64,000 bases of DNA from Pirellulales bacterium (GTDB lineage: Bacteria; Planctomycetota; Planctomycetia; Pirellulales; PALSA-1355): assembly GCA_963733035.1 (NCBI GenBank), contig CAVTBU010000001.1, forward strand, positions 17,124-81,123. Direction: 5' to 3'. A program made the translations under genes and the position numbers. Below, piece after piece: positions 3,305 through 50,961 of this stretch. Every line of letters starts with the position of its first letter. Positions within the stretch are counted from its first letter, which is position 1. The notes beneath the pieces are model-generated. The model made no database searches, was not told the DNA's origin, and saw only the letters and a program-made list of their open reading frames with translations.

Positions 3305-6300
3305 TCAATCGACGCGTTGCAGTATCACAACGCCGTAGTCCGGCACGTTGAGCCAATCACGGCGTCCGATGCGGCGGTCGCGGCCGCCATTGGTGTGCTC
3401 GTCCTCGTTCTCGCAACGTACGGCAAACGCCGGCCAGGTCGAATTCCATAGTTCCCGGTAGGTTCCCTCTGGCAAGTTCAAGTCACTTGCGCCGCGGTAT
3501 CCGGACCAACCGCCGAAATTGAGCAGCACGAAGAAATCGTGCGTCTGACCTCGCGTGAACGTCAGCACTTGTTGCTCCGCCGCGCGCACTTCCAATGGCG
3601 CGGGCCCGTGAATCGACTCGTCGCGGTGCAACCAGCAGAGCGTGCGCCACCACTGGCGAACTCTCGAGCGATCCTCGTCCTGCAAATAGCCATCCAAATC
3701 CAGGGAGTTTGTGCCGCCGAACGTGAACTGGCGGTCTTCGGCCGACTCGGCCCCCATGAACAGCAGCGGGATGCCACGGGAGAGGAGCGTGCAGGCCGCG
3801 GCGACCTTCGACATCCGCAAACCTTGCGACCAGCCAGCAACGTAGGCCACGCGGTCGCGAACGTTGCCAACCTCGTCGTGGCTCTCCGGGTAGTTCGTCA
3901 CCTTGTACCAATCATCGCAAGCAGTGTGGCTCAGTTGCAGAGACGCCGCCAGGCGGGCCATGCCAAACTGGCGCCGGCACGCGTCGACGACGCGGTCGTG
4001 AAAATCGTCGCACCACTGCGTATCCATCGGGCCGCCATCGTTTGTCAACGACCACTCGTTGGGAAGGTGTTCGGCCGCCAACAAACACTGTGCTCCGGCC
4101 TGCGTTCGGACCGCATGCCGGAGCGTCTGCAGGAACTCCCAACCGCCGCCCGAGCCGAGCTGACGCACGAAGGTGCTCCACGAGTCCCAAGCACCGGAGT
4201 GTACGATCGTGGCGGTATGATCGAGGCGGAAACCGTCGATGTGATATTCCTGGGCAAGGTAAACCAGGTTCTGGGCAAAGAAGTGCCGGCACTGTGGATG
4301 ATCGAAATTGATCATCGCGCCCCATTGGGTATCGCCGTCGAAGAAGCTCTCTCTCGCAATTTGCCACAGAATGTTGTCGATACTTCCGGCGTGATTGAAC
4401 ACCACGTCCAACAGCACGGCAAAGCCATGGCAATGACACGTGTCGACGAATTCCTTGAGCGCGTGCGGCCCCGCCTCGCCACAATAGCTGCTTTCGACCG
4501 CATAGAAGAACGCCGGGTCGTAGCCCCAGGAGTGCGTACTGCCAAACTCGCTGACGGGCAGCAACTGGATGGCCGTCACGCCCAAGTCGCGCAAATAGCC
4601 GGCCTGGCTGTCGATCTCGCGGGCGAGGCGCAACAGCGGGGGCAAATCCTGAAAACGGTTCGTGAAGCGGCTGGCATGCAATTGATAGACAATCAGGTAT
4701 TCCCAACCCGGCCGTTGCCATTGCTGATCGTGCCAGGTGTACGCATCGGAGCGCACGAGCCGCGAGCATGCCGTTTCATTCCAGGTGTCTTCGACCCATC
4801 CGGCGGCCGGATCCTGCAATCGCTTCAGACCGTTGAATAGATACTGATACTTGACCCCGTGGTAGTCGGCGGTGCCGTTTCCCAGACCGTGCATCACCTG
4901 GCCGATCGGAACGCGAGCCCACCAATAGGTGTCGTCGCACGTCGAGTGCATCGGCACCGCGCCAGTCGACTCGCCGGTCCAGGGACCGACCACGTGCACC
5001 GTCGCTGCCTCCGGCGCATGCACGACGAAGTGCAAGAAGCCCCCTTCGGCATAGGCACCCGGACGCCGGATGGTGAACGGCGGATCCTGAAACAAATCGT
5101 CGGGCGGCGGAACTTCCAGCAGCGGTGGGCGGTCCAGCACGACATAGCGACGCACTTCCGCGGCCTCGGGCGCCAGTCGCAGTGCATGCCGCGTACGTTC
5201 CCATTGACCGTCGCCATCGTGAAATTTCAATGAGATGGTGACCTCGGGGTAGACGTCAACAGAAACGTTGCCCTCGGCGTCGACCGGTACGTCCGCAAGC
5301 AACGCGCCGCGGGCTTGATTGACCCAAAGATGGACAAATCGGCGATTGCCGTTGGGCCAAGCCCTCGAACACGAGGCAATGCTCAAGTGCAGTCGACAAT
5401 TTTGATGAGGCAACTCGCTGAAAAGGTGGTTGTCTCCCTCGAGCGTCCAAAACTCACAATCCTCGACGAGGCGAATTGACCTACGTTTGGCTTCCGCATG
5501 TTCCCACGAGTCGGGCGCGTCGGGATTCCAGAAAAGCACTCCGTAGGGGAAGTCCTCAAACAAGTCGGTTTCGAAGCATTGCCACCCGCCGGGCTGCTCG
5601 CTGCCGCTGACGTCGATCTCATAGTCACCGCACTCGGACCACAACCGCATCTTCGTTGGGGCTTCAAACTCCTGCCGGTAATGGAGACGCAAAGTCCGCA
5701 GCGCCGGCCGTGTCGGAGTCATCTCCGCGGCTCCGCTGTGTGTCCACAAGAGCGGTCCGTCCTGCGCGGTCCAAATCCGATTGGCGCTTTCGGCCTCAAA
5801 CAAGGAGAACTGCCCCGGTTCGTCCAGTCCAACAAACTTGAAGTTGAAGAACGATTGTTCTTGGCCAACCAGCTCGACGTCGAAGAATGGGCCCGATTCA
5901 TCTTCGCCGCTGGCATCCACCCGGCGGCCCGCCAGCGTCGCCGCGTCCCACAGGTACATCTGACCGGGACGGTACTTTCGCTGTGAAATCAGATGCACGC
6001 GAATTCGCTCGTGTCGCGTCGCGCGAGGATCAGCCAGCAATACGCGCAGCGCCCTCGACGAACCACACTGTTTCAGGAAACGTGCCCTCGGCGGCGCGGG
6101 GCATTTCGCGCTGATGGGCGTCGGGTTCAAATGCGCCGGGTGACCCTTCAACAGCGAATTCAAACAACATAAATCGCACATGTTCGAAAACGGCGGGCTC
6201 AAAGTCGTAATCGAATTCGACCCAACCGGGACCCTTCGCGCCGGGAAGTGGCGGCAGGTAGAGTTTGACGTTGGTGCCTTCGCGCCAGACGTGTAGGCCA

Positions 6301-36835: not shown

Positions 36836-38362
36836 ATGGCCACCGTGAGCTTCGAACCACTGCCCGCCAATCTGGCCGAAATCCAAGTCAAGATCGAGGG
36901 CTATGCCCGCGACTACGGGCTTGATTTCTATCCCACGATCTTCGAACTGATCGACGCCGACCAGCTCAATGCCGTGGCGGCCTACGGCGGCTTTCCCACG
37001 CGCTATCCGCATTGGCGATTCGGCATGGAGTTCGAACAACTCAACAAGGGATATACCTACGGGCTGCAGAAGATCTACGAGCTGGTGATCAACAACAATC
37101 CGTGCTACGCCTATCTGATGCGCTGTAACGGATTGGTCGATCAGAAGTTGGTGATGGCCCACGTGTACGGGCACTGCGACTTCTTCAAGAACAACTATTG
37201 GTTCAGCCAGACCAACCGCAAGATGATGGACGAGATGGCCAACCACGGCAATCGCATCCGTCGTTACATGGACCGCTTTGGCGTGGAACCGGTCGAGACC
37301 TTCATCGACGCGTGCCTGAGCATTGAAGACCTGATCGACATTCACTCGCCGTTCGTCAAACGCTTCGACCAGCCGAACCGCTACGACTTTGATCGGGGAC
37401 ACGACGAGGTGGAAGAGTCGGTAACGCCAGGCCGTTTTCAGGCAAAAGATTATATGGACTCGTTTATCAACCCGCCGCAGGTCCTCTCGGCCGAAGCCGA
37501 CCGTATGCGGCAGGCGCAGGAAAAGCAGCTGCACTTTCCGCCGGAACCAGTGCGCGACGTGATGTTGTTCGTGCTCGAGAACGCGCCGCTGCGTCCTTGG
37601 CAGCTCGATGTGCTTTCGATCGTCCGCGACGAAGCCTATTACTTCGCGCCGCAAGCGCAAACGAAAATCATGAACGAAGGCTGGGCCAGCTACTGGCACT
37701 CCACGATCATGACCCGGCAGGGACTCGAAGCCGCCGACGTGGTCAACTACTGCGATCATCACTCCGGCACGCTGGCAAGTTCCCCCACGAAGCTCAATCC
37801 TTACAAACTGGGCATCGAGCTGTTCCGCGACATCGAAGAGCGCTGGAACAAGGGTCGCTTTGGCAAGGAATATGAAGAGTGCGACGACCTGGCTCGCAAG
37901 CGAGACTGGGACACCGGCGCGAACCTGGGGCGGCAAAAGATCTTCGAGGTCCGCAAGATCCACAACGACCTGACGTTCATCGACGAGTTCCTCACGCTCG
38001 ACTTCGTCCGGCAATACAAGCTGTTTTCATTCGGTTACAACCCGTCGAGCGATGCCTACGAAATCGAAAGCCGCGAGTTCCCCAAGGTCAAACAGCAATT
38101 ACTGTTCAGCCTGACTAACGTCGGTCGGCCGTTGATCGCGGTTCGCGACGGCAACTACAAGAATCGCGGCGAGCTCTATCTGGAGCACACGTTCAACGGG
38201 GTGGAACTGAAACTGAATTATGCGCACGACACGCTGGTCAATCTGCATGCCCTGTGGTGCCGGCCCGTGCACATCGAAACCGTGCTCGACGGAACCCGCA
38301 CGATTCTCTCGTTCGACGGAAGTGAGCACAAAACCGAGAAATGTGAAGAGGCGGAACCATGA
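36836..38362 (+). CDS. spoVR: SpoVR/YcgB-family protein
   Basis: Motifs GFPTRYPHWRFG, KIYELVINNNPC, AHVYGHCDFFKNN, TKIMNEGWASYWH and NPYKLG. Confidence 0.96.
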   Translation: MATVSFEPLPANLAEIQVKIEGYARDYGLDFYPTIFELIDADQLNAVAAYGGFPTRYPHWRFGMEFEQLNKGYTYGLQKIYELVINNNPCYAYLMRCNGLVDQKLVMAHVYGHCDFFKNNYWFSQTNRKMMDEMANHGNRIRRYMDRFGVEPVETFIDACLSIEDLIDIHSPFVKRFDQPNRYDFDRGHDEVEESVTPGRFQAKDYMDSFINPPQVLSAEADRMRQAQEKQLHFPPEPVRDVMLFVLENAPLRPWQLDVLSIVRDEAYYFAPQAQTKIMNEGWASYWHSTIMTRQGLEAADVVNYCDHHSGTLASSPTKLNPYKLGIELFRDIEERWNKGRFGKEYEECDDLARKRDWDTGANLGRQKIFEVRKIHNDLTFIDEFLTLDFVRQYKLFSFGYNPSSDAYEIESREFPKVKQQLLFSLTNVGRPLIAVRDGNYKNRGELYLEHTFNGVELKLNYAHDTLVNLHALWCRPVHIETVLDGTRTILSFDGSEHKTEKCEEAEP

Positions 38363-38838
38363 CGCTCAAAGACCAACTGCAGCAAACACTGGCCGCGCTG
38401 CCGCTGTTTTCCAGCGGCCAGCAGAGTGTGGACCTGTGCGAAAACAACCAGCATCTCAGTTGCCAGCTGACAGCCCTCGACACGCTGGCCTGCGCCTTTA
38501 CGCGGCTCGCGTTGCGGGCAGACAGCCTGGCCAACCGTGCGCCAGACGACCTCAAGTGGATTGCCGAAAACCTCTCGGCTAAGCTCACCTACCTGCTCGA
38601 ACCAATCAGCCCCATCGAGACCGACTCCGAGGGCTGCGTCGTTCAGATGCGCTCCAATCCGCCTCAAAAAGACGCCGACCGCACGAGCTACTACGAACTG
38701 CTCGTCGCGCGGACCGGCGAATTGAGCCTCGCCCGCTACACGCGGGCAGTCGGCCAAGCGCGCGAGGTGGTGCCGGCCGAGGTAACTCGCGAAGTCTTGT
38801 GCCGCCTGGCCGGCGACCTTTCGGTCGCTGCTGTCTAA
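38359..38838 (+). CDS. Hypothetical protein translationally coupled to spoVR
   Basis: ATGA overlap with the spoVR stop; host-like codon usage; 159 aa. Confidence 0.8.
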   Translation: MTLKDQLQQTLAALPLFSSGQQSVDLCENNQHLSCQLTALDTLACAFTRLALRADSLANRAPDDLKWIAENLSAKLTYLLEPISPIETDSEGCVVQMRSNPPQKDADRTSYYELLVARTGELSLARYTRAVGQAREVVPAEVTREVLCRLAGDLSVAAV

Positions 38839-39088
38839 CGATTCAGACCGCCGTACTGACACGCCGAATCTTTTTGAGCGTCGTGGTCTCTCTGCGCACA
38901 TCGTCGCAATTGGTAGCACCGCAACTTTCGCTGACGAAATCGTTCGGATGCGGAATCCGTCCCAATACGCCAATTGCCACAGCCTGACGTTCCGGACATT
39001 GGCACCCACCATTTCAGGGCATACAATCGCCCCAGAGACAGCACTCAGCTTGCCTCGATGGTTCTCGCCCGCATTAGGAGCCCCTGAG

Positions 39089-40974
39089 ATGTCTGATAAG
39101 GTTGAACGAGTCGCCGAGGCCGAGGAACCTGCCGAAACGGAATACTCGAACTGCGAGGTTGATGATTCTGGTGCAACTGAACTTTCCCCGCCTAAGGCTC
39201 GAAATGCCGATCAGGAAGATCAAGAGACCGTCGACCAACCAGACACCGCTAGCGCCCACTCCGACTTGTGTGACGAAGCGACAGAATTAGACGCGCTCGA
39301 ATCGATTGAGAGTGACGCGCGCTCGACCGAAACCTGCGACGACACCCACCAACCGAACCGAGAAAGGAAGCTACACAAGCGTAGGCGAGTAGTACAGGCC
39401 CCGGCCGAAGCTCGGCTTCGCGGTCGGCGACAATTCTGCAAACGGATTGCCGATATTGCGCCGTACATGCTGAAGACAGTCAAATTGAGGATCCTTGGGA
39501 ACTACCTGAATTCCACGAAAGGACTTTCCGACGACGCCCTGACCGAGCAGTTGAGAAAAGACGCGGGCAAGATAGCGGCGAGGGATCGCATTCTTGGCGC
39601 CTTTGAATCTCTCGATTCAACGGCAGACTTACGAAATCTGAAGTGGATCATCCTAATTGGAGTACTCCTCCAAGAGGAAACCTACAGCCTCGAGGAATCG
39701 CGACTGGAAGAGAAAGTAGTCGATTTCGAAAAGCGAGTCGTAAAACGAGCCCGCACGCTGGATTTCTTCGACAAGAAGAGCCACGAAGAAACGCGATGGC
39801 ACTTCTACGACACGTACCGAATCGTTCTCGAAGCGGCCTGGGCAAAGGACGAGGACATCTCTGTCGACGAAGCCAACCTTTTGGCGGTCTTGCGAGACCA
39901 TCTCAGCATTACGATGGAGGAGCACTGGGCCATTGGAGCGTACATAAAACGATTCCCGAAAACCAAGTGCCTTCTTCACACACCAGAGGAAATCCATGAC
40001 GCCCGTAAGCAACTTCAAAAAGAATCGCTATTGTGGAACTACCGCGACGAACATGACCGCCGAATTGATGTCATTCCATACGAGGTCGTACAACTATTGG
40101 CTCAGGAAGTTGCGCGCAGGAACTTCAACGCACAAACTATCATCGACTGCTGCAAAACGACAGCATCAAGCTCAGCGACCTGCGCGATGTCCTACAGGCC
40201 AACAGCATGGACCGCAATGGAAACAAGGACCTGTTGATCACCCGGATTGCCGAGAGCGACGTGCGGCCGAGCGATGTGTTGGGCGCGTTGGACAGCGATA
40301 AACTTGCAAAAATGTGCAGGGCTGTCGCCTTGCCTTCATCGGGCTCAAAATCCGAGCGCATCGTTAGATTGATCGACTTCTATGATGACCTTACGTTCGA
40401 AGAGCGCACTACTCAGGATGCTCGAGAGGAATGGTACAGCAACTATGAACTTCTTGCTGCGAGGAGCTATTCGGATTTAAAAGCCAAGAAGGTCATCAAC
40501 AGGGACCTCGATATCGAGCACCAATTCGAGAGGGCAACTGATTTCTTGTTTGAGACAAAACTGCGAGTGCCCGTCGACCACAAACGGAAGGGCACCAAGG
40601 CCGACGGACGCATCTTGCTTGAAAACCGACAGTCCATTCTTTGGGATTGCAAGTCAAACGAGAAGTCCGTCAACCTGCAAGACCATCTGGAGAGCCAGTT
40701 TGATGGCTATCTTAGAAGGGAAGCCGCCTGCGGCAACCAATGTCTCGCATTCATCGTGATCGGACCCGCATTCACCGCGCAGTCACTTAAGCTCTGTCAT
40801 CAATACAAGGCCAGAACAAACTGGGATGTTGCGCTCGTCACGGCAGAGGCGCTGAAGCATCTGGCTGAACTGTGGAGCACCACCTCTGGCGGAAAGCAAT
40901 TTCCAATCAGGCTCCTCAACCGCACCGAGTTGATCGACAAAGAAAAGGCGGAGTATTTACACAGCTTGGCGTAA
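39089..40974 (+). CDS. TerB-like + tandem SAP-like + PD-(D/E)xK (Mrr/FokI-like) endonuclease; frameshift near 40115
   Basis: AGGAG RBS before ATG 39089. The downstream frame is open from 40069 and reads QELQRTNYHRLLQNDSIKLSDLRDVLQANSMDRNGNKDLLITRI. The C-terminus has FE...ADG...ILWDCKS...Q..GY...FIVIGPAF. Confidence 0.75.
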
Positions 40975-41122
40975 CTAACGGCGGGCAAGTGTATTGATTG
41001 ACACCGCAGACGAACACGCGACCCTAACGGTTGCTCACTATTCATCGTAGGCTTATGATTCGGCATTCGTTCGACGAATTCGCGCCGGACAGCGTTACTC
41101 CGTAGGAGAGCTTTAACCCACG

Positions 41123-49100: not shown

Positions 49101-50961
49101 CTACCCTTCCGTGGGATCGGAAATGCCCAGCCGGGATCGTTCTTCTCTAGCCTGTTGCTCGGCGCGGTGGTGTTGTTCGAGCTCCAACAACACGGCCATT
49201 GCATCCTCCTCGGCGAGTTGCCGGTCTTTAAGTGCCTCGGTGCGACCGCGAAGACTCTGTTCTCGCCGCCGGCGCTCGAAGCCGGCCAACACGTCTTGCA
49301 GTCGAGGTTCCGTCTCGGACGACGCTTTCGCGCGACCCGTTTCGTCAAGCTCAACGAGCAACGTTTTAACCACTGGGTCGTCAATCTCCAACAACAGTCG
49401 CTCAAACTCTGGCAAGACTCCACGCGACCACAATGCCATACTCCGCGAGTAGACTTCCCGACACGTCGGGCTGACAAGCTGCGCAGGTTGCACGGCATTC
49501 GCAATTCGCTCGATCGTTTGCGGATCCTGCAGCACGATTTCCAGCAATTCGCGCTCCAGCGGCTCAATTTTTTCGCGCACGCTAGCAGTTGCCTCAACAA
49601 CTTCACGGCGTGACGCGGTTTTCCGCCGTAACTGCGTCATTAACTCGCGGACTTGCCCCTCCGATACGCGAAAATCGACGGCCAGCCGTTGTAAAAACTT
49701 CTCTTCCCTTAACCGATCTTCAACCTGCGTGTCGGATCGCAGGCGCGGCGCCTTGGCGATCGTGGCCACAAGTTGTTCGAGCGCCGCCGTGGCTGCATGC
49801 AAGTCTGCTTGCAGATCGACGCCTTCGGTCGCCGTCTCAAAGGCGTGCTGCAGCGCGTCGGACGCCCGCTCGGTCAGCGCTTGAAATGCCTCGGCGCCGT
49901 GAGCCAGCAGAAAGTCGGCCGGATCGGCGTCGTTGGGCAACGTGAGCACGCGCAAGTCGACGTTCGCCGACACGAACAATTCCAAAACTTCCTTGGCGCG
50001 GCGGCGGCCGGCTTCATCGCCGTCGAGCACCAACACGACACGAATGCGATCGGCATAGCGCCGCAACAATTGAATGTGTCCCGCGCCTACGCGCGGTTCC
50101 CAGCACGGCCACGCAGTTCTCAAAACCAAACTGGTGAGCCACGAGGCAGTCGGTATAGCCTTCGGTGACCAGGGCCACGCCGGTCTTGCGAATCGCATCC
50201 CGGGCGTGATTCAGCCCATACAGCAACTTGCTCTTGGCAAATAGCGGCGTCTCCGGCGAGTTCACATACTTGGCGGCATCGGCGCTCGCCAGTTGAGGCA
50301 AAACCCGGCCGCCGGTCCCCACCGCACGTCCCTGGGGATCGAAAATCGGGAACATCACCCGGCCTTTAAACCGATCGTAGTAGCCCGGGCCTTGGCGACG
50401 GCGACTGATCACGCCAATCTTTTCCAACACGGCGGCCGAGTAGGGCGTTTGACGGGCTCGTTCCAGCAGCCAACTCCATTCGTCGGGTGCAAAACCGAGT
50501 TGGAACTTGCGAATGCTTTCCGGAGTAATGTGGCGATCGGTGAGATACTGCCGCGCCGCTTCGGCAGCCGTGGATTTCAGCAAGTATTCGTGATATTGCT
50601 CATCGACCCAGGCCATCGCCTGGTAGAGCAGGCGTTTGTCGTCAACCGGCGCGCCGCCGCTCGTCTCCTTGAGCGAAATATTCGCCCGATCGGCGAGCAT
50701 TCGCAGGGCTTCGGGGAATTCGACCCCCTCCATCCGCATCACGAAGCTGAAGATGTCGCCGCCGATGTCGCAAACCCAACAGCGAAATGATTGCCGTTCG
50801 GGATTGACTTGCAAACTCGGGCGCGAGTCGTCGTGCCAGGGACACAGCGCCTTAAAGCCGCGTCCCTCGCGCCGCAGCGGCAAATAGCTCCCCACCAAGT
50901 CGACGATATCCGTGGCCTGCTTCACTCGCTCCTTCGTTTCGTAGGCCACGCCAAACGACAC
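49101..50961 (-). CDS. dnaG: DNA primase, split by a 1-nt frameshift at ~50090
   Basis: Motifs CPWHDD..PS, CWVC, DRFKGRVMFPI, KYVNSPET, EGYTD and LDGDEAG..DPAD. Removing base 50090 restores the canonical LGTAL motif. Confidence 0.93.

Follow-up and report, generated by a model that had tools for sequence, protein, structure and literature searches.

Two open reading frames of a Pirellulales bacterium are one gene for a rare, horizontally spread SAP and FokI-type DNA-cutting enzyme

In a 64,000-nt stretch of DNA from a Pirellulales bacterium (the window, to which all coordinates refer), two ORFs, 38948/39089-40237 and 40207-40974, lie in different frames between spoVR and a chdC-type gene. Are these two genes or one, and what would the product do? 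A first-pass annotation had joined them through a single indel near GCGCGC 40112-40117 and read the product as a stand-alone nuclease of defence. Our analysis joins both ORFs into a single gene, rare and spread horizontally, whose product combines SAP motifs with a FokI-type DNA-cutting domain. Every peptide quoted in the annotation was found in the sequence, and the second frame is indeed open from 40069, after the TGA at 40066-40068.

One gene in two reading frames

The gene spans 39089-40974 on the + strand and has about 628 codons, with a one-base frame change at GCGCGC 40112-40117. Its parts and the signals ahead of it are as follows.

38999..39027, + strand: promoter-like TTGGCA-17-TACAAT, 61 nt 5' of the ATG (10/12 consensus matches)
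39076..39080, + strand: ribosome-binding-like AGGAG, 8 nt before ATG 39089 (read from the sequence)
39089..40111, + strand: coding sequence for the N-terminal portion, first frame, residues 1-341 up to EVAR (ORFs; tblastn with P0004 residues 73-322)
40112..40119, + strand: frame-change site GCGCGC + AG, one base short (compared with P0004 and 24 other full-length relatives)
40114..40974, + strand: coding sequence for the C-terminal portion, second frame, stop codon TAA 40972-40974 (tblastn with P0004 residues 320-604, 81% identity)

The promoter-like site is a consensus match only, with one found and 1.1 expected in shuffled sequences.

The closest full-length relative, P0004, is a protein of 604 aa with 72% and 81% identity to the first and the second half of the gene, respectively (tblastn). 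The junction in P0004 reads ...YVARQELQRTNYHRLLQNDSIKL..., whereas in the window the first frame ends in ...EVAR and the second frame reads QELQRTNYHRLLQNDSIKL. This comparison places the break directly after EVAR, where the assembly is one base short. The homologue search returned 131 relatives at E <= 0.001. Among the 119 relatives listed, 113 have a length of 482-655 aa and 114 carry SAP. All 25 full-length relatives in alignment A3 cross the junction in one frame, and a single unbroken tblastn match was obtained at 27 of 32 genome loci. Given the 131 relatives and the 25 in-frame junctions, the observation goes beyond chance.

To explain the cause of the break, we surveyed indels in the rest of the assembly. 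From the related genome G003 we took 212 intact ORFs of at least 200 aa, and 153 of them matched this assembly at 60% identity or more. We found 16 frame changes in these 153 conserved genes, over 70,425 aligned residues. GCGC lies within 10 nt of 14 of the 16 junctions (15 of 17 with the target gene included); randomised positions gave a mean of 4.35, and the observed count was reached in 0/2000 randomisations. GGCC, CCGG, GCCG and CGGC showed no enrichment at the frame-change junctions of this assembly. A second frame change lies inside the window at ~50090, splitting a conserved 640-aa ORF, and the break of the relative at locus L037 is also within GCGCGC. These patterns suggest that the break is probably an assembly indel error, one of many linked to GCGC, and very probably not a property of the gene. 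None of the contigs from four sequencing runs (151-750 bases long, aligned over 36-233 bases) spans 40112-40119; the word share in those runs was 0.06-0.11 in three and next to none in the fourth.

Two other causes were considered. Phase variation or programmed frameshifting at the (GC)n tract came into question as P0003 is broken at the same codon, in the opposite direction. This was rejected: conserved genes across the genome have frame changes of both directions next to GCGC, and P0271, the 95%-identical cluster mate of P0003, is an intact protein of 607 aa. A GCGC-specific C5 methyltransferase as the source of the error was rejected as well, since a profile search found no PF00145 match in the 92%-complete assembly.

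Two further readings question the single intact gene itself. In the assembly as written, the ORFs lie in different frames and the second has an ATG of its own at 40207, as separate genes would. This ATG, however, falls within SAP motif 1, conservation continues across the junction in both frames, and single full-length proteins prevail among the relatives, both in the listed set and at the genome loci. The annotation had named homologs in two separate genes as the result that would speak against it; single proteins were found instead, and we regard separate genes as extremely unlikely. The gene may also be truly frameshifted, a recent pseudogene, perhaps as a costly or toxic nuclease. Other copies are truly disrupted (the linker at L035 holds two IS4-type transposase ORFs), P0003 and L037 have frame changes too, and the contigs from the runs leave the site uncovered. 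But the frame changes in conserved genes, mostly beside GCGC, fit a systematic error and not selection at this locus, as does the split 640-aa ORF. In addition, this copy has a single lesion, with all family-invariant residues kept in both halves (A3), and P0003 has its intact mate. A pseudogene is thus improbable. With an assembly indel as the most likely cause, the organism probably carries an intact gene. About 1 in 10 conserved genes of this assembly has a frame change beside GCGC; split ORFs here, and possibly in similar long-contig assemblies, should be checked before they are called pseudogenes or separate genes.

Domains of the encoded protein

The intact product has an acidic tail, a helical N-terminal domain, two SAP motifs and a C-terminal nuclease domain, located as follows.

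39089..39367, + strand: acidic, predicted disordered tail, residues 1-93 (composition, pLDDT)
39368..39388, + strand: basic patch KLHKRRR (sequence)
39401..40111, + strand: helical N-domain, residues ~105-341; fold winged-helix-like, one segment TerB/ENT-like (model, Pfam)
39833..39913, + strand: TerB-like segment AAWAKDEDISVDEANLLAVLRDHLSIT (Pfam TerB picks up the equivalent stretch in P0137 and P0139, E 0.004-0.006)
40168..40257, + strand: SAP motif 1, P0002 residues 34-63 (Pfam PF02037, 28.7 bits vs a cut-off of 23.9)
40303..40386, + strand: SAP motif 2, P0002 residues 79-106 (SAP_new25, 21.0 bits, under the cut-off of 26.3)
40426..40941, + strand: FokI-type PD-(D/E)xK cleavage domain, P0002 residues 120-291 (model, Foldseek, VIA-align)
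40528..40653, + strand: putative catalytic residues E154 (40528-40530), D179 (40603-40605), D193 (40645-40647) and K195 (40651-40653) (conservation)

The acidic N-terminus had been noticed before, and its composition bears this out: the first 93 residues hold 29 D+E against 7 K+R, with a pI of 4.05. Over residues 1-90 the ten-residue block means of pLDDT are 42-55. The tail is variable in sequence, yet acidic in all seven relatives checked, and in the same seven a K/R-rich run stands ahead of a conserved R-L-x-G-R-R motif.

The helical domain that follows is modelled with block means of 70-81 (residues 101-120) and 90-98 (residues 121-340). Its fold matches at middling scores are RosR (Z 9.7, rmsd 2.6, 93 aligned) and the ORC2 WH (Z 9.3, rmsd 2.0, 94 aligned). 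Almost all structure matches listed for this domain are winged-helix proteins, and the aligned residues are scattered over model residues 162-347. The annotation had seen a TerB-like motif here. Similarity to the TerB profile is weak: Pfam TerB (PF05099) gives sub-threshold matches in 10 of 52 relatives at E <= 0.1 (best E 1e-4), two relatives score 17.3 and 18.0 bits under the cut-off of 24.4, and ENT matches, also sub-threshold, occur in 8 of the 52. ENT co-occurs with TerB in Atlas clusters, where the leads score 0.78 and count as leads only. Pfam TerB has no match in the window protein itself, and a TerB fold did not appear among the matches listed (50 in each of two structural searches). 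The domain might at most tentatively be called TerB-like on the grounds of these profile matches.

Tandem SAP motifs were confirmed, with the first repeat over the Pfam cut-off; the second falls under it here, and its equivalent is over it in relatives, e.g. P0012 and P0125. In the model, the helices of SAP motif 1 are at 35-44 and 53-62. Pfam finds SAP in 35 of 52 relatives. A sequence profile compared with solved structures returned SAP proteins only, led by the Ku70 SAP (1jjr, E 2.7e-4) with 2jx3 and 2rnn weaker; FokI was not found by it even at E <= 10. Ku70, DEK and PIAS/SIZ1, which share the motif, are eukaryotic chromatin or repair factors and have no nuclease domain, unlike the window protein. 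SAP motifs are commonly described as DNA binders without strict sequence specificity. In the part of the source covered here, more than 92% of UniProt SAP domains are given as eukaryotic (PMC13700489).

Judged by its modelled fold, the C-terminal domain is a FokI-type PD-(D/E)xK nuclease. The whole C-terminal model has a mean pLDDT of 92.1. VIA-align of the nuclease domain against FokI (2fok_B, residues 405-579) gave Z 15.3 with an rmsd of 3.0, 155 aligned residues and 16% identity, and the alignment spans the whole cleavage domain. The other fold matches are N.BspD6I (Z 13.7), the R.BspD6I small subunit (Z 12.6), HindIII as the next fold (Z 9.2) and MspJI (Z 6.2). Foldseek, a check that the annotation had proposed, also returned a PD-(D/E)xK match (2fok_B, E 1.1e-5). 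The earlier suggestion of an Mrr/FokI-type cleavage domain can thus be narrowed to FokI, at Z 15.3 vs 9.2 for the next unrelated fold, and the lack of a nuclease fold, which would have told against it, was not observed. Pfam FokI_cleav_dom (PF09254) matches 20 of 52 family members at E <= 0.1 (best E 9.3e-8), and a precomputed PF09254 label exists for 22 of the 119 relatives listed. In the window protein itself, this model (curated cut-off 25 bits) finds nothing at E <= 1.

The putative catalytic residues E154, D179, D193 and K195 are invariant in all 26 sequences of A3. In alignment A1, which holds 52 sequences from both branches, including the one at 23-34% identity, E154, D179-G180, D193 and K195 are conserved in at least 90%. 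D179, D193 and K195, plus E154, would be the putative equivalents of the catalytic residues of FokI.

The cleavage domain is predicted to pair with itself, and the model supports homodimer binding. The homodimer model of residues 110-301 scored 0.59 and the best of three controls 0.01; three runs agreed in 100% of contacts, and the partner pLDDT was at least 87. Of proteins solved as pairs, 20 of 30 attain this mark, against 1 of 23 among those solved as single chains. The pass of the window domain may reflect its likeness to FokI, whose dimer is already solved.

Compared with FokI, the window protein shares the best structural match, the conserved D...D-x-K and the predicted self-pairing. It differs in that the recognition domain is replaced by the helical TerB/ENT-like, winged-helix-like domain and two SAP motifs, and in that the gene has no conserved partner methyltransferase. 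The BspD6I enzyme, the second-best fold match, consists of a large nicking subunit and a separate small subunit, whereas the window protein is a single chain with no conserved neighbour. Mrr and MspJI, which are Type IV-like, are likewise stand-alone and join a DNA-binding or reader part to a PD-(D/E)xK domain without a cognate methyltransferase. Here, however, the nuclease is FokI-type and not Mrr-type, and no known modified-base reader domain was detected in the window protein, unlike in Type IV-like enzymes.

The N-terminal module is found with another effector. P0004 residues 168-409 match residues 67-289 of P0241, a BrxC/D-type ATPase fusion, at 31% identity (E 7e-23). The fusions P0225, P0237 and P0241 have the N-terminal helical module and the tandem SAP in common with the window family, but their effector is a BrxC_BrxD AAA ATPase (292-333 bits) and not a nuclease. 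BrxC_BrxD (PF10923, an ORC/Cdc6-type AAA ATPase) has no match in the window protein or its full-length relatives. Among 25 shorter or partial matches to the SAP module, we found only SAP, one truncated BrxC_BrxD and one Mrr_cat. A search with the N-part for longer homologues, in a length band starting at 670 aa, returned none.

Insertion, distribution and neighbourhood

The gene lies within an insert:

38839..41122, no strand: 2.28-kb stretch carrying the gene, absent from same-genus genomes (blastn against the spoVR-chdC intervals of G001-G004 and G011)

Similarity to the relatives ends at ~38836, at the end of a 159-aa ORF, and returns at ~41141 inside chdC. The insert is missing from three same-genus genomes; the spoVR-to-chdC gap is 605 bp in G001 vs 2760 bp here, and in relatives the insertion spot is occupied by different cargo. 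The GC content of the gene is 0.51-0.54 and that of the flanks 0.58-0.64. The richness in A/T-ending codons reported earlier is visible in GC3, which is 0.59 and 0.66 in the two parts (~0.62) against 0.74-0.80 in five neighbouring genes. Upstream are PrkA, DUF444 and SpoVR; downstream follows a gene of the Chlor_dismutase family (ChdC-type). No methyltransferase was seen beside the window gene, although the two ORFs directly past chdC lack a Pfam match. The described position, alone between spoVR and chdC with no adjoining methyltransferase, therefore holds.

The gene is present in 0/24 genomes of the same family (three of them of the same genus), in 1/16 genomes from other families of the order and in 2/400 genomes of a phylum sample. 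Searching 1.84 billion cluster representatives gave 173 matches, and the family is nearly confined to Planctomycetota. Together with the lower GC3 and the lack of a conserved methyltransferase, these counts fit an accessory gene on a patchily distributed insert, in line with the earlier view of a stand-alone, horizontally acquired nuclease. The annotation had also named synteny and vertical conservation across the order as evidence against it. Absence from all 24 same-family genomes does not fit such conservation, but the tree has family-level clades (Gemmataceae, Planctomycetaceae, Pirellulaceae), which indicates that the distribution reflects in part vertical descent with loss rather than transfer. 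One copy sits on a viral contig, ~3 kb away from an integrase of phage type.

Loci L010 and L011 have identical tblastn coordinates, scores and junction DNA and are nevertheless binned under two phyla, which makes the Verrucomicrobiota host doubtful.

We compared the neighbours of 29 loci and found no conserved partner gene. The most-shared neighbour family, at no more than 6 of the 29 loci, consists of large ORFs matched by PADLOC kinase models; all others are shared by at most two loci. L037 is the one locus with an adjoining methyltransferase, and there the enzyme belongs to a Type II endonuclease of its own. Non-kinase PADLOC matches within 5.5 kb were found at 8 of 29 loci, strong ones (at least 200 bits) at seven (L015, L017, L019, L025, L035, L037, L039) and a weaker one at L013. 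At the other 21, no defence gene could be recognised over that distance, and plain housekeeping neighbours (DUF1501, RtcA, PilM, peptidases) are found at many loci. The control comprised 125 ORFs in 10 windows on one contig of one relative, with 0/10 windows at 200 bits or more and 2/10 with weak partial non-kinase matches. At 7/29 vs 0/10, with a small control, the one-sided Fisher test gives p ~0.10, which is not significant. The proposed enrichment in defence islands (8/29 loci vs 0-2/10 control windows) is thus suggestive and falls short of significance, and defence, be it by modification-dependent restriction or by abortive infection as the annotation offered, keeps the standing of a candidate role. 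The E cut-off also differed between the two batches of neighbours, 1e-5 for one and 1e-10 for the other. Ser/Thr-kinase matches to the PD-T4-6 and mad6 models (L009, L018, L028, L029, L032 and one control window) were set aside as generic kinases, and a PolA-like match (L020) and an HTH match (L016) were likewise discounted as defence neighbours.

The protein stands outside the named systems covered by libraries up to 2023, as had been proposed. Neither half matches any family of PADLOC-DB v2.0.0 at E <= 1, and no NCBIfam or PHROGs model matches the protein. We found no published bacterial nuclease combining SAP with a FokI-type domain in the literature searched, in which the Ter-system literature was covered in part. 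In the covered text of a 2026 BREX survey, 'SAP' and 'TerB' do not occur (PMC12839542). TerB domains are present in the Shango defence system (bioRxiv 10.1101/2022.05.11.491447) and in Bunzi (PMC10250203), going by the covered parts of these sources. There, Shango SngA and Bunzi are TerB proteins of validated anti-phage systems, and the window family has a weak TerB-profile similarity, below the Pfam cut-off. Both comprise several genes, including helicase and ATPase or membrane components, whereas the window has a single gene.

A candidate defence role and its alternatives

On balance, we favour the reading that one protein of about 628 residues, split by an assembly indel, is a stand-alone DNA endonuclease that most likely serves in methyltransferase-independent defence. 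Its role would most likely be Type IV-like restriction or that of a sensor-gated nuclease, and the protein may be an undescribed stand-alone defence nuclease. Defence is put forward because the gene is rare and patchy, occupies a variable insertion spot, has no methyltransferase partner and has an N-module that also occurs on BrxC/D-type ATPases.

In such a protein, the SAP and winged-helix parts would place the enzyme on DNA. The non-specific FokI-type domain would cut only once the cleavage domains of two copies have paired, as those of FokI do, and the N-terminal domain would restrain or target the cutting. The acidic tail perhaps folds back onto the basic and SAP surfaces, adding restraint or targeting.

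A broader reading, which is tentative and in our view doubtful, takes the TerB/ENT-like, winged-helix and tandem SAP parts as a portable DNA-surveillance module of an undescribed family of single-protein immune sensors, mainly in Planctomycetota. A FokI-type nuclease or a BrxC/D (ORC/Cdc6-like) ATPase would be the alternative outputs of this module, which would sense a feature of invading or damaged DNA and then license dimer-dependent cutting. The acidic tail would serve as a DNA mimic within the molecule, holding the SAP and basic surfaces shut until a trigger arrives.

Two alternatives accept the nuclease and question its immune role. It may be a nucleoid-associated enzyme of repair or recombination, or a selfish stand-alone nuclease gene, which we consider unlikely. 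SAP motifs, winged helices and ENT-like segments are characteristic of proteins that act in chromatin and repair, and the profile matches the SAP motifs of Ku70, DEK and SIZ1; most loci have no recognisable defence neighbour and many sit among housekeeping genes. The near restriction to Planctomycetota, the family-level clades and a single-gene insert without mobility genes also fit this idea. But a housekeeping enzyme would not be absent from 24/24 same-family genomes and 398/400 genomes of the phylum sample. A homing nuclease would be expected at a conserved target site, whereas the 29 loci have no neighbour in common; we rejected a homing endonuclease on the lack of a conserved insertion site. 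BrxC/D-type ATPases, which are known from BREX defence, have the same N-module, and this argues in the same direction. Copies also occur broken or with IS elements inside (L035), a frequent fate of costly accessory genes. Clearly less probable is an orphan, FokI-like Type IIS endonuclease whose protecting methyltransferase lies elsewhere in the genome; we would put it even a little below the pseudogene. The nearest relatives of the cleavage domain by fold, FokI and BspD6I, are Type IIS enzymes, and the N-terminal part has a winged-helix-like fold, as the FokI recognition domain contains. However, the N-terminal region has neither a sequence match nor a listed fold match to that recognition domain, and the alignment covers FokI 405-579 only. 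A methyltransferase is no conserved neighbour in the 29 loci, with L037 as the only case, and SAP motifs are not regarded as strictly specific.

The defence reading, if right, would have consequences beyond this locus. FokI's cleavage domain is the workhorse of engineered nucleases, and the domain combination described here is new; if the enzyme is active and methyltransferase-independent, it would represent a new way to aim such a domain, through SAP motifs, a rarity in bacteria, together with a helical sensor domain that is uncharacterised. The gene would then be a candidate single-gene defence from a phylum with a little-studied immune repertoire. Since the N-module is held in common with BrxC/D-type ATPases, the family offers a testable case of one sensor with alternative effectors.

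A single gene and its frame break

We located the gene on the forward strand of the window, downstream of the PrkA, DUF444 and SpoVR genes and upstream of a Chlor_dismutase-family gene (chdC), with the following features:

38999-39027 (+): promoter-like TTGGCA-17-TACAAT, a consensus match only
39089 (+): ATG, the likely gene start, with an AGGAG motif 8 nt upstream
38948/39089-40237 (+): first ORF (ORF list and sequence), in another frame than the second
40112-40117 (+): GCGCGC run in the sequence
40207-40974 (+): second ORF, its frame open from 40069

The first-pass annotation had proposed that an indel near 40112-40117 splits one gene into these two ORFs. All its quoted peptides were found in the sequence, and both the opening of the second frame and the GCGCGC run lie where it placed them. 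A homologue search with the N-terminal part matched 131 relatives; 113 of the 119 listed fall between 482 and 655 aa, 114 carry SAP (PF02037) and 22 have a precomputed FokI cleavage-domain label. The closest full-length relative, P0004 (604 aa), reads through the junction as ...VARQELQRTNY..., whereas in the window EVAR and QELQRTNY lie in different frames, indicating that one base is missing from the assembly at 40112-40119. The junction is read in one frame by all 25 full-length relatives in our alignment. Furthermore, the tblastn match is continuous at 27 of 32 loci in species-representative genomes; of the other five, two run into contig ends and three are broken, one (L035) by an insertion and two (L037 and L038) by frame changes. 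Two separate genes, as the ORFs appear in the window, are not what the homologues have, and the full-length relatives bear out the fusion. We regard it as practically certain that the two ORFs are one gene.

The frame change could be real, making this a genuine pseudogene, or an assembly artefact. From a single contig of the same-genus genome G003 we took 212 intact ORFs (200 aa or longer) and compared them with the window's own assembly. For 153 a counterpart with 60% identity or more was found, and across the 70,425 residues aligned these conserved genes contain 16 frame changes, both +1 and -1. GCGC lies within 10 nt of the junction in 14 of the 16 (15 of 17 with the target gene added), while intervals of the same lengths placed randomly gave a mean of 4.35 and reached the observed count in 0 of 2000 trials. 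Four other G+C-rich tetramers showed no excess at the junctions. One conserved gene in ten is thus broken, which points to a systematic error tied to GCGC and not to biology. A C5 methyltransferase (PF00145), sought as a source of these errors, was not found in this assembly. One of the 16 changes splits a conserved 640-aa ORF of the window at ~50090-50092 (- strand; context ACCGCGCGTAGGCGCGGG).

Similar breaks were observed in relatives. The out-of-frame tail of P0003 (341 aa) starts at the very ...VAR codon where the window's gene breaks, in the opposite direction, and its 95% identical cluster mate P0271 is intact (607 aa). In another MAG, the frame change at L037:10300-10320, on a contig of 2.2 Mb, also falls within a GCGCGC run (AAGCGCGCGAATGG). 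This suggests that the GCGC-linked error reaches beyond the window's assembly. Every family-invariant residue is retained in both halves of the gene. Contigs from four sequencing runs are short, and none spans the break. An artefact fits these retained residues, the P0003/P0271 pair and the GCGCGC run at the L037 break, and we favor it over a pseudogene with good confidence. A split ORF in this genome is best read as a probable assembly error.

Domain architecture

Residues 1-93 are acidic (29 D+E, pI 4.05) and predicted to be disordered, followed by KLHKRRR. This layout of acidic tail and basic patch is present in 7/7 relatives checked, with varying sequence. Residues ~105-341 form a helical domain (ten-residue pLDDT block means of 90-98 over 121-340), whose listed structural matches are nearly all winged-helix proteins with middling scores, including RosR (Z 9.7, rmsd 2.6, 93 aligned) and the ORC2 WH (Z 9.3, rmsd 2.0, 94 aligned). 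A TerB-like segment had been claimed, and 10 of 52 family members give Pfam TerB matches below threshold (best E 1e-4) that speak for it, but no TerB structure is among the structural matches listed. Pfam ENT matches were found in 8 of 52 members, and Atlas leads point in the same direction with a score of only 0.78. We call the segment tentatively TerB/ENT-like. Both proposed SAP repeats were recovered, the first above the Pfam cut-off and the second above it in relatives.

We found that the C-terminal domain (residues 120-291 of P0002, the translated second frame; mean pLDDT 92.1 for the whole C-terminal model) superimposes on the whole FokI cleavage domain (Z 15.3, rmsd 3.0, 155 aligned), with a Foldseek match of E 1.1e-5. 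N.BspD6I (Z 13.7) and the R.BspD6I small subunit (Z 12.6) also matched, and the next fold was HindIII (Z 9.2). The putative catalytic residues E154, D179-G180, D193 and K195 are each at least 90% conserved, including in a second branch, proteins of ~500 aa with no acidic tail but otherwise the whole architecture at 28% identity. The Mrr/FokI pattern noted earlier is therefore very likely a FokI-type nuclease. A predicted homodimer of this domain scored 0.59, against 0.01 for the best of 3 controls, with the runs agreeing in at least 100% of contacts and a partner pLDDT of at least 87; the same mark was reached by 20 of 30 solved pairs and by 1 of 23 solved single chains. The prediction supports self-pairing, short of showing it, and since a FokI dimer is already solved the pass may only mirror likeness to it.

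The helical domain and tandem SAP are also fused to BrxC/BrxD-type AAA ATPases in P0225, P0237 and P0241 (BrxC_BrxD at 292-333 bits), and residues 168-409 of P0004 align with residues 67-289 of P0241 (31% identity, E 7e-23). The N-terminal module is common to both, whereas the effector is a FokI-type nuclease here and an AAA ATPase there. We infer that a module carried on alternative effectors is typical of conflict systems.

Distribution and neighborhood

The gene has a GC of 0.51-0.54, compared with 0.58-0.64 in the flanks, and a GC3 of ~0.62, compared with 0.74-0.80 in neighboring genes (genome mean 0.70, sd 0.075; long ORFs, four contigs). It is not syntenic and vertically conserved across Pirellulales: it was not found in any of the 24 same-family genomes searched, 3 of them of the same genus, and is present in 1 of 16 genomes from the order's other families. 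Phylum-wide, 2 of 400 sampled genomes carry it, and only 173 cluster representatives among 1.84 billion match. Three same-genus genomes retain the order spoVR, 159-aa ORF, chdC and lack the stretch 38839-41122. The cargo at this spot in relatives' genomes is as follows:

G001: nothing
G002, G003: 443-aa Pyr_redox_2 protein
G004: 349-aa Beta_elim_lyase protein and small ORFs
G011: other ORFs

The 159-aa ORF (38359-38838), directly 3' of spoVR, is kept in 5/5 relatives examined, has no Pfam match, and could belong, as a fourth gene, to the PrkA/DUF444/SpoVR cluster.

Hosts are nearly all Planctomycetota, the exceptions being one Latescibacterota MAG, one Actinomycetes-labelled bin and one Limisphaerales-labelled bin. 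The Limisphaerales assignment is doubtful, since its locus is indistinguishable from a Gemmataceae one (identical tblastn coordinates and scores, same junction DNA); probably at least one of the two labels is wrong. A tree of the C-terminal part resolves family-level clades but not the backbone, indicating descent with much loss and some transfer. Horizontal acquisition, as first proposed, agrees with the patchy insert missing in same-genus genomes, but the clades show that descent accounts for part of the pattern. The gene is neither conserved core nor purely transferred. One copy lies on an IMG/VR contig with a phage-type integrase and a Sak4-like gene ~3 kb away, and one Gemmataceae MAG holds near-identical copies on two contigs (L015, L018).

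The most widespread neighbor family, large ORFs matched by PADLOC kinase models, occurs at 6 of 29 de-duplicated loci, and all others at no more than 2. The gene thus stands alone, without a conserved methyltransferase, as had been proposed. We scanned 252 ORFs within 5.5 kb at the 29 loci and, leaving out kinases, found strong PADLOC matches (at least 200 bits) at seven:

L015: PDC-S37/Hhe-like giant protein
L017: PDC-S02; PrrC, PDC-S05 and Type I S subunit at 130-170 bits
L019: Type II endonuclease
L025: PD-Lambda-1 and PDC-S27
L035: Type IIG enzyme and PDC-M proteins
L037: Type II R-M pair
L039: PDC-S48

L013 had a weaker non-kinase match. The control, 125 ORFs in 10 unselected windows of one G003 contig, gave 0 strong and 2 weak matches. 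For the expected defence-island enrichment, the strong matches count in favor, but 7/29 versus 0/10 is not significant (one-sided Fisher p ~0.10; one-genome control, neighbor batches scanned at different E cut-offs). The link with defence genes is suggestive and no more.

Several loci showed further features. At L035:7542-9986 (Gemmataceae MAG), two IS4-type DDE transposase ORFs split the homologue in the linker that precedes its SAP motifs. The surrounding region is dense in defence genes, among them a Type IIG enzyme, PDC-M02B and PDC-M41B, and also has a reverse transcriptase. The L015 gene has very large defence-like proteins on both sides (PDC-S37/Hhe-like; SNF2-helicase-like). On the viral contig L039, an RNase_T exonuclease (4283-5560; PADLOC PDC-S48) two genes from the homologue also matches Pfam TerB weakly (E 3e-4) in the C-terminal region.

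Proposed function

A stand-alone DNA endonuclease is the most likely identity of the protein. Its SAP and winged-helix parts would bind DNA, cutting would occur through pairing of FokI-type domains, and its role would be methyltransferase-independent defence against foreign DNA. We place this defence role at slightly better than even. The shared module and the defence genes at some loci are consistent with it. A nuclease that is selfish or processes DNA outside immunity is a less likely reading, and an orphan Type IIS enzyme an unlikely one.

No PADLOC, NCBIfam or PHROGs model matches the protein, in line with the earlier view that it is not a named system, and relatives are named only "hypothetical protein" or "SAP domain-containing protein". 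In our literature search the architecture was nowhere described; a 2012 Ter-systems paper, outside the search, may bear on priority for a TerB-nuclease fusion. TerB domains are present in the Shango and Bunzi defence systems (bioRxiv 10.1101/2022.05.11.491447; PMC10250203). A 2026 survey of BREX (PMC12839542) mentions neither "SAP" nor "TerB" in its main text. Taken together, the cleavage domain is of the known FokI type, whereas its putative N-terminal targeting or sensor module is new.
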